From: Nitrososphaeria archaeon
GTDB taxonomy: Archaea; Thermoproteota; Nitrososphaeria; Conexivisphaerales; UBA164
NCBI GenBank assembly: GCA_046536595.1
Contig: JAWDMM010000003.1
Coordinates: forward strand, 1,836 to 65,835
Length of the DNA: 64,000 nt
Direction: 5' to 3'
The notes beneath the pieces were generated by a model. It was not told the DNA's origin. It saw only the letters and a list, made by a program, of their open reading frames with translations, and did not search any database. The position numbers and the translations under genes were made by a program. Positions 13,286-56,159 of this stretch are shown piece after piece. Position 1 is the first letter of the stretch. Each line of letters starts with the position of its first letter.

Positions 13286-13427
13286 GTGAACTACCCTGCC
13301 CTCACTGGCAAGGCTTCCCGGTTCATCGAAACGCTTACGTGTGGAATGTTTGCATTCCACCGTCGCAGAGGCGTTTCATCCCTGGGCGTCTCGCCTGCAT
13401 TCCACAGGCAAAGCCCATTTGGGCATC
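13286..13427 (-). ncRNA. Putative TnpB omegaRNA scaffold (3' guide would continue into 13285-13266)
   Basis: Hairpins GCCTG/CAGGC, GAAACGC/GCGTTTC and GTGGAATG-CAAA-CATTCCAC. Ends at the right-end GTAGTTCAC. TATA-like TTTTATATAAA at ~13444-13454 lies upstream. Expression is inferred. Confidence 0.65.
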
Positions 13428-13523
13428 AATAATATAAAATTTCTTTATATAAAAACATTTCTGTAAGTGGCTATTCATCCCCTACCTCGCGGAAGGGGAC
13501 TTTCGCCCCTTAACCCCAAAAAG
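13286..13523 (-). mobile_element. Non-autonomous IS200/IS605 (IS1341-like) mini-element, copy E1; no ORF
   Basis: Minus strand reads TTTAA | CTTTTTGGGGTTAAGGGGCGAAAGTCCCCTT (hairpin with GAAA loop and bulged T) ... TCGATGAACCGGGAAGCCTTGCCAGTGAGGGCAGGGTAGTTCAC. Collinear homology with 55572-55825. Confidence 0.85.
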
Positions 13524-13623
13524 TTAAAAAATTATCTGAATAAATTATAAGCTCATAACACAGAAAATTCATCTGTGCTGATTATAAGTTTGATAGATTT
13601 GGATTAATGTTTTAATAATAAGA

Positions 13624-25290: not shown

Positions 25291-25541
25291 CTTTATGGGG
25301 GTTAAGGGGGCGGAAGTCCCCTTTCTCAAGCTCTAAATAGTCCCTTATACAAATATTTTTAAACACTTTAGCACATTATCTTTAAAATACCGGTGTCCAA
25401 ACCTGAAAATAATGCAGGTATCGGAGAAAAATCTTTTTAGAAGGAAATTGCAGGAAGCCAGAACATATGAGTTGAAGATTTAAAAGAGCCAACGTGGCAT
25501 ATAAGCTGGAAGCCCTGGCTGCAAAGGTTGTGGTAGTTTAC
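25291..25541 (+). mobile_element. Diverged copy (E3) of the IS200/IS605 mini-element
   Basis: TTCAA | CTTTATGGGGGTTAAGGGGGCGGAAGTCCCCTT, then TAAATAGTCCCTTATACAAATATTTTTA (cf. E2 TAAATAGCCCCTATAGAAACGTTTTTA). Ends GGAAGCCCTGG...GGTAGTTTAC. Length similar to E1/E2. Confidence 0.65.
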
Positions 25542-34118: not shown

Positions 34119-34249
34119 TTGTTAAGCTTTATCTTTTTACCAGAGACCTTATCCGAAACAGTATACCAAACTTTTGTATGATGGATTTGCCGCCTTCAAG
34201 TTTTATGAGCGGCTTTTCCTTAAAATAGCTTTAAACTGTCAAGCAGGTT

Positions 34250-34440
34250 AATCAAATACGCTGATTATTATCACAATACATTATGTGGTGCCAGTCAATC
34301 GCAACTATTACGGGTTTTTGAACGCGCCAGAATCTCTCATTTTTATAATTAGTTCGTTGTACTCATGGGCCCTGTTGCTTCAGGTTGTTCCTTATAGCAT
34401 GTCCACATAGGTTTAAAAAGCATTATCCATAGATTTTTCC
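34250..34440 (-). pseudogene. Degenerate ISH3-like (IS4 superfamily) transposase fragment
   Basis: Minus strand gives AHEYNELIIKMRDSGAF, then a one-base shift in an A-run to KPVIVAIDWHHIMY, which resembles the ISH3 first catalytic-Asp motif. Stop codons nearby. Confidence 0.5.
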
Positions 34441-34539
34441 AAAGGTTGATTAAAACATAATGCGCTTTACCATTATTAGATCGTAAGATTGTTTATGGTT
34501 TGCATAAACGGTAAAAGGCCATCCTGCGTTAAAAAAATT

Positions 34540-34572
34540 TTGAACTACTGGTAAGGGCGGGGTAGTTTTCAA
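34540..34572. repeat. Isolated IS605-type right-end remnant forming a hairpin
   Basis: TTGAACTACTGGTAAGGGCGGGGTAGTTTTCAA shares GTAAGGGCGGGGTAGTT with the E2 right end. AACTAC/GTAGTT are inverted. Confidence 0.55.
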
Positions 34573-34629
34573 GCTCGTATAAATTCTATTTGTTAATTAA
34601 AATATATAAAATCGGGGTCACAAAGGATA

Positions 34630-54929: not shown

Positions 54930-55571
54930 ATGCAGGGACTTGACATAGCTCTTGATTTAATAGAAGAAAAACTTGTTGCTCTTAACAGGACACCGATAAT
55001 AGGCTTGGGAAGCGGGAGGACCGCATCAAGAGTTTTAAAAGAACTCGGGAAAAGGTTGAACAACAAGAATATAAGGCCTGTAGGCGTTCCTACTTCAGGT
55101 CAGATAAAGCTTGAGGTTCTTGATTATTATCTTATATCAGAACCAAACTTTAGCTTTCTCGACTTAGTAATCGACGGTGCAGACCAGGTGTCAAGCTATA
55201 ACGGATACATAATAAAAGGCGGTGGAGGGGCACTTACAAAGGAAAGGATAGTCTGGGAACTTTCTAAAGAAAGGCATGTTTTTGTATCACAAGATAAGGT
55301 AGTTGAAAAGCTAGTTTACCCTTTACCAGTTGAGTTTATTCCATTTTCTTACTTTCTGGTAAAAGACAGCCTGATAAGGCTAGGGCTTAAACCAAGTTTA
55401 AGGGTTGACTCACGGGGCTATCCTTTTATAACCGAAAACGGGAATTATATATTCGATGCTTCATATTCTGAAAACTCTGACCTCAAAAGCGCTTATGAAG
55501 AGATAATCAGGATACCTGGTGTTCTTGATGCTGGCCTGTTTATTTATGACATAAATCTTCATGTAATTTAA
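54930..55571 (+). CDS. rpiA: Ribose-5-phosphate isomerase A
   Basis: IGLGSGRT, IDGADQV, IKGGGGAL..E, ITENGNYI.D. Confidence 0.95.
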   Translation: MQGLDIALDLIEEKLVALNRTPIIGLGSGRTASRVLKELGKRLNNKNIRPVGVPTSGQIKLEVLDYYLISEPNFSFLDLVIDGADQVSSYNGYIIKGGGGALTKERIVWELSKERHVFVSQDKVVEKLVYPLPVEFIPFSYFLVKDSLIRLGLKPSLRVDSRGYPFITENGNYIFDASYSENSDLKSAYEEIIRIPGVLDAGLFIYDINLHVI

Positions 55572-55825
55572 CTGGCAGGCGAAGGGGGGGAAAGTCCCCT
55601 TGCACGAGGGGGAAATAAATAGCCCCTATAGAAACGTTTTTATTATGAGAAAATATTACATTATTGATGCCCAACCTAGAAAAGGAGAGGCTTTCCCTTT
55701 GGAGCATAGGGGAGACGCCAGGCTATGGAAAACGCCCCTGCGATGGTGGAATACTTGCAAAGTATTCCGCAGGTAAGCATATCGATGAACCGGGAAAACA
55801 AGCTCGTAAGGGCGGGGTAGTTCAC
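55572..55825 (+). mobile_element. Non-autonomous IS200/IS605 mini-element, copy E2, between rpiA and the next gene
   Basis: TTTAA (includes the rpiA stop) | CTGGCAGGCGAAGGGGGGGAAAGTCCCCTT ... TCGATGAACCGGGAAAACAAGCTCGTAAGGGCGGGGTAGTTCAC. Collinear with E1. Confidence 0.85.
55666..55825 (+). ncRNA. Putative TnpB omegaRNA scaffold (guide would continue into 55826-55845)
   Basis: Same hairpin order as E1 with changed but still pairing stems, e.g. GGAATACT-TGCAA-AGTATTCC. TATA-like TTTTATTA at ~55637-55645. Expression is inferred. Confidence 0.65.
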
Positions 55826-55826
55826 A

Positions 55827-56159
55827 GTGAGTGAAGACATGGTTTTTAAATTGGCCCAGTACATAATAGAGCAGAAGGAGAGCCTTACTCCTCAAGTTCT
55901 TTCTGAATGGTATAACATAATTAAGGAAGATTATATCAAGATCGCACCAGAAGAACTGAAGGATAAACTTGAAATCGAACAGGATCCGATATTACCTATG
56001 AAGTTTAACATTAAGGTAAGCAAAAGGGCTATAGAGTATTTTATAGCAGCGGTAGAAAAAAACCTTAGCAAGATGCCAAAGCCGACTCAAATATATTTCA
56101 TGAAAGTCGAAGAGCTTGTGTTAAAAAGATATGAAGAAGAAGTTAAGGGAAAAAGTTAA
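55827..56159 (+). CDS. Hypothetical protein
   Basis: 110-aa ORF with GTG start 1 nt after the element's right end. Contains 'QDPILPMKF'. Confidence 0.75.
   Translation: MSEDMVFKLAQYIIEQKESLTPQVLSEWYNIIKEDYIKIAPEELKDKLEIEQDPILPMKFNIKVSKRAIEYFIAAVEKNLSKMPKPTQIYFMKVEELVLKRYEEEVKGKS

Follow-up and report, generated by a model that had tools for sequence, protein, structure and literature searches.

An E2 element of probable tnpB descent occupies the rpiA-ORF110 junction of a Nitrososphaeria archaeon, where the native spacer appears to be lost

We analysed a stretch of 64,000 nucleotides (the window) from a Nitrososphaeria archaeon (assembly GCA_046536595.1, contig JAWDMM010000003.1, positions 1,836 to 65,835, forward strand) with a focus on E2, a 254-nt element between an rpiA-like gene and the open reading frame (ORF) of a 110-aa protein, ORF110. 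Judged by comparison with related loci (given below by L numbers), E2 is very probably a fixed, gene-less and likely immobile derivative of an insertion sequence (IS) of about 1.34 kb that belongs to the IS200/IS605 family and carries tnpB only (IS1341 type); its insertion would have been combined with the loss of the native spacer between the two genes and followed by decay.

E2 belongs to a dispersed element family with exact ends

The rpiA-like ORF (54930-55571; Pfam Rib_5-P_isom_A, E=2.9e-36) ends with GTA ATT TAA, and E2 starts with the following C at 55572 and continues to 55825 (...GTAGTTCAC; ...GGGCGGGGTAGTTCAC). Its GC content is about 50%, compared with 39% for the genome. On the right side, a single A at 55826 is followed by GTG AGT GAA GAC ATG from 55827, the start of ORF110 (55827-56159), for which no Pfam family was found; the next gene, two genes downstream of rpiA, belongs to the PAC2 family (Pfam). 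Thus E2 is flanked by TTTAA including the rpiA stop codon on the left, and by AGTGAG including the ORF110 GTG on the right.

Related copies were searched for in species-representative genomes with the pattern GATGAACCGGGAA-N10-30-GGTAGTTCAC, which was built from the conserved 3' part. It matched 30 loci in metagenome-assembled genomes (MAGs) of hot-spring archaea assigned to Marsarchaeota, Nitrososphaeria and Thermoproteati. Most of these loci were found in the Marsarchaeota MAG JAWDNK01 and the Nitrososphaerales MAG JAGDXJ01, and the remaining ones in two further Nitrososphaeria/Thaumarchaeota MAGs and one 'Thermoproteati archaeon'. Many matches are located at contig ends, in line with their repetitive nature. 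In all 30 loci, similarity among the copies ends exactly after TTCAC and the flanks are unrelated, while on the other side TTTAA stands before 17 of 20 left ends, which start with C (consensus C TTTATGGGGGTTAAGGGGGCGAAAGTCCCCCTCCGTGAGGTGGGGGATGGATAGCCCCC). As in palindrome-associated transposable elements (PATEs), the copies are dispersed over several MAGs, with three of them in the window (Table 1), and they extend from C to TTCAC without terminal inverted repeats. Palindromes lie near both ends, GGGGGCGAAAGTCCCCC and CCCCCTCCGTGAGGTGGGGG on the left and CCCCGTCCGTGAGGGCGGGG on the right, and show covariation.

The insertion rule can be read from E1, another copy in the window, which sits between a UppS-type prenyltransferase gene (uppS) and a DHH/DHHA1 gene. 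Loci L046-48, whose DHH protein is 90% identical, lack E1 and have the empty site ...TTCTTTAA|ATATTTAAAA, reading ...TTCGATAATTCTTTAA|ATATTTAAAAATT...GAAATG across the joint. When positions 13286-13523 are removed, the window is colinear with this empty site (TTTAA|A) and no duplication is left. Therefore TTTAA belongs to the host, the element extends from C to TTCAC and nothing is duplicated; insertion directly 3' of a short motif without target-site duplication is again a property of PATEs. The same motif, 5'-TTTAA, was shown experimentally to be the transposon-adjacent motif (TAM) of Sulfolobus islandicus SisTnpB1 (PMC10640517).

An earlier note on this DNA had described the sequence correctly throughout, and the boundaries that it had proposed for E2 are borne out by these comparisons, the right one exactly by the divergence of flanks in the 30 loci, the left one by the 17 of 20 left ends together with the filled and empty sites of E1. 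Likewise, its assignment of E2 to the IS200/IS605 type agrees with the position 3' of TTTAA, the TTCAC end, the missing target duplication and the compensated stems described below.

E2 and E1 aligned with 73.7% identity over 243 nt in blastn (E=3e-35, E2 against the window), and their global identity is 73%. The deletion joint of E1, ATGCCCAA|ATGGGCTTTGCC (ATGGGC), recurs in L007, L010 and L024, which are 82-86% identical to E1, and the joint of E2 recurs in L001 and L016, the latter (78%) being nearest to E2 among the copies scored. By these joints and identities E1 and E2 belong to two deletion subfamilies and are not duplicates of each other; each is more closely related to copies of another MAG than to those of its own genome. 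The copies of the JAWDNK01 MAG, which is assigned to another phylum, share 82-86% identity with E1, compared with 73% for E2 from the same genome as E1. This suggests either that the subfamilies spread horizontally among co-resident hot-spring archaea or that the JAWDNK01 MAG has a binning problem. A search of viral contigs for a vector between phyla gave 0 matches.

Table 1 Elements and element parts in the window
Feature	Position	Strand	Remark or basis
TTTAA target/TAM	55567..55571	+	directly 5' of the left end; last 3 bases are the rpiA stop codon
E2, very probably a 254-bp non-autonomous internal-deletion derivative (PATE-like or miniature inverted-repeat transposable element-like) of a tnpB-only IS200/IS605-family element	55572..55825	+	both ends homologous to full-length L015, L044, L054
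Left end with G/C hairpins GGGGGGGAAAGTCCCC; CCCCTTGCACGAGGGG; GGGGGAAATAAATAGCCCC	55572..55635	+	left-end comparison, DNA fold
Retained tnpB promoter region, TATA-like TTTTTATTAT	55636..55666	+	same block between left end and tnpB in L015/L054/L044
First 7 tnpB codons, ATG CCC AAC CTA GAA AAG GAG (MPNLEKE)	55667..55687	+	fused to the tnpB 3' end by the internal deletion
Omega-RNA-like scaffold, 138 nt, to the right end	55688..55825	+	alignment A3, RNAalifold, pair counts
Scaffold helices ~55694-55712 and ~55746-55768; terminal hairpin 55797-55818, then AGTTCAC	within 55688..55825	+	
Positional guide AGTGAGTGAAGACATGGTTT, flank read out of the right end, including the ORF110 GTG start	55826..55845	+	position only
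E1, 238 bp, second deletion subfamily	13286..13523	-	TTTAA target 13524-13528 (minus strand)
E3, a third element, decayed, of the X/KMA-type deletion subfamily	25291..25541	+	left end TTTATGGGGGTTAAGGGGGCGGAAGTCCCC, right end GGTAGTTTAC

Both ends of the family are those of a tnpB insertion sequence

In L014, L015, L020, L025 and L029 the conserved last ~138 nt run on from a coding sequence that ends ...CPSCNSAFDRDVASAIVILKEGLSLWNVGETPGDENASAM.... In L025, the ORF preceding the conserved 3' part scored 40.3 bits with Pfam OrfB_IS605 (cut-off 30.5) and 30.7 bits with Cas12f1-like_TNB (cut-off 26.3), and the C-terminus of this TnpB reads ...KEGLSLWNVGETPGDENASAM. TnpB homologues of 365-387 aa were detected; P0013, the TnpB of the full-length relatives, matched the ISDra2 TnpB structures 8bf8/8exa/8h1j with E=1.6e-12. 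Full-length elements of ~1.34 kb are present in L015 (780-2118, frameshifted) and L044, and L054 has the left end and promoter of these two. They are built in the order TTTAA, left end, TATA-like block, tnpB (MPNLEKNAKIREKRKQTLL...) and right end GGGTAGTTCAC, and their tnpB family is recognisable by MPNLEKNAKIREKR.... L044 and L015 have no tnpA between left end and tnpB, and none was seen in the other loci examined.

In L025, L044, L015 and L014, the conserved 138-nt block overlaps with the final ~45 codons of tnpB and ends at GGGTAGTTCAC, the position of an omega-RNA scaffold. As required of PATEs, the mini-elements share homology at both ends with a full-length element that encodes TnpB (OrfB_IS605 plus zinc-ribbon/TNB). 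In E2, the 5' remnant of tnpB runs directly into ...GGCTTTCCC..., with which the conserved 3' block begins. The resulting 56-aa mini-ORF consists of MPNLEKE fused to ...LSLWSIGETPG (MPNLEKERLSLWSIGETPG...; MPNLEKE-RLSLWSIGETPG...).

Two observations concern the full-length copies themselves. At the canonical RuvC-II Glu of ISDra2 TnpB (IGTEHL), the TnpB family (P0013, P0009, L025; e.g. L044 188-1351) has VVFQGDD or VVFQDDD, and a conserved Glu is found ~17 residues further downstream in (Y/Q)ETSIGG. TnpB clades with a rearranged RuvC-II catalytic site have been described (PMC10691335), and the family may be such a clade, an uncertain assignment that comes from an ungapped alignment where that of HMMER is gapped. 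Additionally, the right end of a full-length tnpB copy in L045 (1230-2530) stops after ...GTGAGGGCTGAGTA, just upstream of IS110-family transposase fragments (DEDD_Tnp_IS110, Transposase_20); another IS may have inserted into its right-end hairpin.

The native spacer between rpiA and ORF110 is missing

Six homologues of ORF110 were found, all in Nitrososphaeria MAGs or metagenomes, with the gene order amidohydrolase, iron-containing alcohol dehydrogenase (Fe-ADH), rpiA, ORF110, PAC2. The distances between rpiA and ORF110 were taken between called genes, and the called start codons vary by locus. Among the element-free relatives, L036 (ORF110 90%) has 74 nt plus 14 nt of the called ORF, ending GAGTTTAA|AGTGAGCG; L041/L042 (88%) have 100 nt, with AACTTAA|AGTGAGCG 13 nt upstream of the called ATG; L031-33 (74%) have 102 nt and L043 (75%) 107 nt. 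In the closest relatives, L034/L035 (95%), an element called X stands directly after the rpiA-stop TTTAA and is followed by 127 nt of native spacer ending GGATTTAA|AGTGAGCG. X (L034 2592-2872) belongs to a different subfamily. Since it occupies exactly the site of E2, the rpiA-stop TTTAA is, on this comparison, a recurrent target that was either hit independently or in which one element was replaced by another.

The spacers of L036, L041 and L034 have a promoter-like block, AAAAAAGTTGTCTTTTATTTGTTTAAATATA, in common. A search for this native block (GTCTTTTATTTGTTTAWATA) with up to 3 mismatches gave no match anywhere in the window. In L036 and L034 a TTTAA is joined to AGTGAG as well, and it represents the last five bases of the spacer and not the rpiA stop. 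The window and five near-identical loci of other samples (L037-L040, L053) all show the same E2 joints and miss the spacer. E2 is joined on its left to the rpiA-stop TTTAA and on its right to what in relatives lies behind the spacer-terminal TTTAA: the joints are canonical (TTTAA|C ... TTCAC|A) but come from two different TTTAA sites. A minimum of two events, insertion and spacer loss, has to be assumed.

These data do not fit the view of the earlier note that E2 had entered an ancestral, tightly coupled junction in which the rpiA stop was followed one base later by the GTG. A longer intergenic sequence in element-free relatives had been named there as the observation that would speak against it, and every element-free relative has such a spacer, of 74-107 nt. 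The predicted empty site, in which the rpiA-stop TTTAA is joined to AGTGAG (GTAATTTAAAGTGAGYGAAGA), had 0 matches in metagenome contigs. A tight joint may have been present for a short time, provided that the loss of the spacer preceded the insertion of E2; the data are compatible with either order.

The native spacer with its conserved promoter-like block (127 nt in L034) would have been lost besides the insertion by one of three routes: deletion between two ATTTAA repeats, before or after the insertion; recombination between two elements, one at each TTTAA; or an adjacent deletion made by the transposase. The recombination route can be extended to an account of the whole locus, in which two elements of the same orientation, one at the rpiA-stop TTTAA and one at the ORF110-proximal TTTAA, recombined homologously and thereby deleted one copy together with the spacer. 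It would explain why the joints of E2 are exact transposase-type joints at two different sites, and the rpiA-stop TTTAA is demonstrably used, as X resides there in the 95% relative, which has kept its spacer. However, no chimeric signature was seen, since the left tip of E2 (CTGGCAGGCGAA) has no clear match to the tip of X (CTTAACTGGGGTTGA) or to the consensus of the E1- and E2-like (E-type) copies. Moreover, two insertions plus recombination are required and no tandem intermediate was found. We regard this account as rather unlikely, though it is the strongest of the alternatives.

Simple peel-and-paste insertion of E2 into a pre-existing tight junction, with the rpiA-stop TTTAA one base from the GTG, is less probable still. 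Both joints look canonical, and E2 may have entered a tight joint that an earlier deletion between two ATTTAA repeats, as present in L034 (GTAATTTAA ... GGATTTAA), had created. Yet such a joint occurs in no relative, given the spacers of five element-free lineages, the 127 nt kept in the 95% relative and the lack of metagenome matches, so that it would have been, at best, a short-lived derived state and not the junction of an ancestral, coupled operon.

The scaffold has a conserved structure

For analysis of the scaffold, 18 distinct copies of the last ~138 nt were aligned (alignment A3), and RNAalifold gave a consensus of 40 pairs. Standard pairs were present in 95.8% of the cells, compared with 37-49.5% when partners were slid by 1-3 columns. 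Changes on both sides of a pair were counted in 29 cells (8 pairs); slid controls had no more than 4 such cells and shuffles 9.9 +/- 3.0. The compensatory changes fall into three helices of the consensus. The family thus has the conserved secondary structure that is characteristic of omega RNAs.

The stems that the earlier note had compared between E2 and E1 correspond to helices 2 and 4 (e.g. C-G/G-C in columns 9/25 and U-A/C-G in columns 75/88). The differences are real (GGAATACT/AGTATTCC in E2 vs. GGAATG/CATTCC in E1; CCCT..AGGG vs. GCCTG..CAGGC), and the compensation it had recognised extends to the whole family of 18 copies.

RNase P or another known structured RNA, suggested by a GAAAGTCC motif and the GC-rich island, was considered as a candidate and rejected, as no Rfam match was obtained up to E 10. 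More generally, the idea that E1 and E2 represent paralogous genes of the host that encode a structured non-coding RNA (e.g. catalytic or housekeeping) and are not mobile DNA, for which the GC-rich islands in a 39% GC genome, the stable folds (E1 z=-4.75, E2 z=-2.1), the covarying stems and a GAAAGUCC motif reminiscent of RNase P might speak, is effectively refuted by the empty sites at orthologous positions of close relatives and the continuity with tnpB coding sequence in full-length copies, in line with the missing Rfam matches and the multiple copies with unrelated flanks in several MAGs.

E2 appears to have decayed

The right-end hairpin of the family, CCCCGTCC-GTGA-GGGCGGGG, keeps its pairing by compensation in E1 and L015. 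In E2 (AACAAGCTC-GTAA-GGGCGGGGT) 3 of 9 pairs are broken in all six near-identical strains. The left tip has diverged from the family consensus as well (CTGGCAGGCGAA vs. CTTTATGGGGGTTAA), and where other copies have GTTAAG immediately 5' to the first hairpin, E2 reads GCGAAG. By analogy with IS608, this is presumably the position of the DNA 'guide' for the target motif. Among the six strains, 8 of 254 columns of E2 are variable (0.031), compared with 2 of 642 in rpiA, 1 of 333 in ORF110 and 8 of 726 in PAC2, which makes E2 about 10-fold more polymorphic than the flanking genes. Because of the broken hairpin, the diverged left tip and the excess of polymorphism, E2 looks like an immobile, weakly constrained fossil.

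Several results weigh against E2 being a decayed tnpB derivative at a site that lost its spacer. The polymorphism contrast is based on few sites, some of them in G-runs prone to assembly error. Rfam, with its RNase P and HEARO/omega-type models, gave no match over the window at gathering thresholds and none at E<=10 over 55400-56000. Neither tnpA nor an intact tnpB was found in the window by tblastn, and no copy of either was assignable to the genome of the window, the traced homologues P0014 and P0032 being in other assemblies. Finally, an intermediate with both E2 and the spacer (GTAGTTCACAGTGAGYGAAGA) was not found in metagenome contigs: of the matches, L053 has the same arrangement as the window, and L051 and L052 are chance matches.

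A model for the origin of E2 and its possible role upstream of ORF110

We propose that an internal deletion took nearly all of tnpB and would have left the left end with its subterminal hairpins, the tnpB promoter with 7 codons, the 138-nt scaffold and the right end ...GGGTAGTTCAC. Integration in this family would take place in single-stranded form, immediately 3' of TTTAA and with no target duplication, and movement would need a Y1 (HUH) TnpA supplied in trans. In an active copy, transcription from the retained tnpB promoter would yield a probably leaderless RNA composed of the scaffold and a flank-derived guide, which TnpB made elsewhere may use in trans to re-cut empty sites flanked by TTTAA. 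E2 would have decayed after the spacer was lost.

The earlier note had also seen the first codons of the next gene as the guide of E2, which holds by position for ORF110. Compared with the spacer-terminal TTTAA site of relatives, the guide AGTGAGTGAAGACATGGTTT has 2 mismatches in the first 17 nt, and in L036 and L034 the guide sequence is directly preceded by TTTAA. A T5 run (GGTTTTTAAA; ORF110 codons 6-8, 55843-55849) lies 18-22 nt past the right end of E2, approximately where the guide of an omega RNA is expected to end. Its placement is probably coincidental, as it is host coding sequence that is partly conserved in relatives.

Both motifs reported by the earlier note upstream of ORF 55827, a TATA box and a G-rich sequence, are present. 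The G-rich GGGCGGGGTAG is the conserved right-end hairpin of every copy and is not specific for this site. The AT-rich, TATA-like block GTTTTTATTATG occupies 55636-55647, and the predicted TATA is centred ~26 nt upstream of the ATG at 55667. A distance of ~26 nt between TATA and start is the usual spacing in archaeal promoters. Accordingly spaced, a leaderless start is predicted near 55667, close to the ~55666 suggested previously.

ORF110 and PAC2 are intact and conserved, and their native promoter region is gone; therefore they would be transcribed either from the outward-facing promoter of E2 or by read-through from rpiA. A T5 run within the TATA block of E2 could, speculatively, hinder read-through. 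A take-over of the promoter function for ORF110 and PAC2 by E2 is plausible on the sequence, and the lack of the native promoter block in the window supports it indirectly. In its most specific form, the leaderless tnpB/omega-RNA promoter of the fossil (TATA 55636-55647, start ~55667) would be the working promoter of ORF110-PAC2, with ~160 nt of guide-RNA scaffold as a 5' leader, a possibility that we put forward tentatively and consider doubtful. If true, a guide-RNA gene would have been exapted as promoter and structured leader, and the fixation of a decayed element in all sampled strains would be explained.

Further element remnants in the window

E3 has TTCAA instead of TTTAA at its left flank; it shares 56-58% identity with E1/E2 and ~62% with X of L034. 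Mini-elements of the X/KMA type comprise L017, L022, L013, L012, L005, L034 and E3 in the window. On the 5' side they retain ~100 nt of tnpB in addition to left end and promoter, and on the 3' side only the last ~60 nt. Most of the omega-RNA scaffold is missing from them, and it is precisely this part which both E-type deletion subfamilies keep, a difference that hints at selection of E-type copies for a complete guide-RNA scaffold.

In the 510-nt intergenic region 34119-34629, positions 34548-34567 match the right-end hairpin and tail of E2 in 19 of 20 bases (GTAAGGGCGGGGTAGTT). No other element sequence was found nearby and the intergenic region has no Rfam match. The short match could be a solo right-end remnant or due to chance.

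Discussion

The locus documents an unnamed family of mini-elements, derived from TnpB elements and carrying omega-RNA scaffolds, that is common to hot-spring Nitrososphaeria and Marsarchaeota MAGs. The family has exactly defined ends, the TAM TTTAA and an RNA structure backed by covariation. Annotation should profit from it, since such GC-rich islands otherwise resemble unknown non-coding RNA genes, and so should searches for thermophilic TnpB/omega-RNA pairs. The E2 locus provides a natural case of an IS200/IS605 remnant coinciding with the loss of a neighbour's promoter region. The current understanding of how IS200/IS605 elements work is unchanged by these results, and the possible promoter replacement is their sole non-routine aspect.

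PATEs, first defined in Haloquadratum walsbyi, lack terminal inverted repeats, carry near-terminal palindromes, do not duplicate their target and arise by deletion of the core of IS605-type elements (PMC3119063). The E-type elements resemble them in being multi-copy, too short for a protein and free of terminal inverted repeats, with G/C palindromes near their ends, as well as in their apparent origin by internal deletion of tnpB and the absence of target duplication. The omega-RNA region is kept, and PATEs of Geobacillus likewise often encode omega RNAs, which are used in trans by TnpB (PMC10055086). In contrast to the known PATEs, their sequence family is new and occurs in MAGs of thermophilic Nitrososphaeria and Marsarchaeota, and their copies keep the promoter and start codon of tnpB, so that the scaffold has its own promoter ~20 nt upstream. 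E2 differs additionally by being decayed and associated with the loss of a neighbour gene's native spacer.

Among characterised TnpB systems, SisTnpB1 of Sulfolobus islandicus also belongs to an element of an archaeal thermophile whose left end is flanked by 5'-TTTAA, and its omega RNA is located at the 3' end of tnpB as in the E-type family. In S. islandicus TTTAA goes with elements carrying tnpA and tnpB, and solo-tnpB elements have TTTAT (PMC10640517); the full-length relatives described here are tnpB-only and are likened to SisTnpB1 by layout. ISDra2 TnpB aligns with P0013 over residues 71-348, including the RuvC-I GIDLG, the RuvC-III DRD and the zinc ribbon, and as in ISDra2 the family scaffold overlaps the 3' end of the gene and stops at the right-end boundary. 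In contrast to ISDra2, the TAM of the family is TTTAA and not TTGAT, and the RuvC-II Glu seems to be aligned with a Gln (VVFQGDD), which suggests a rearranged catalytic site.

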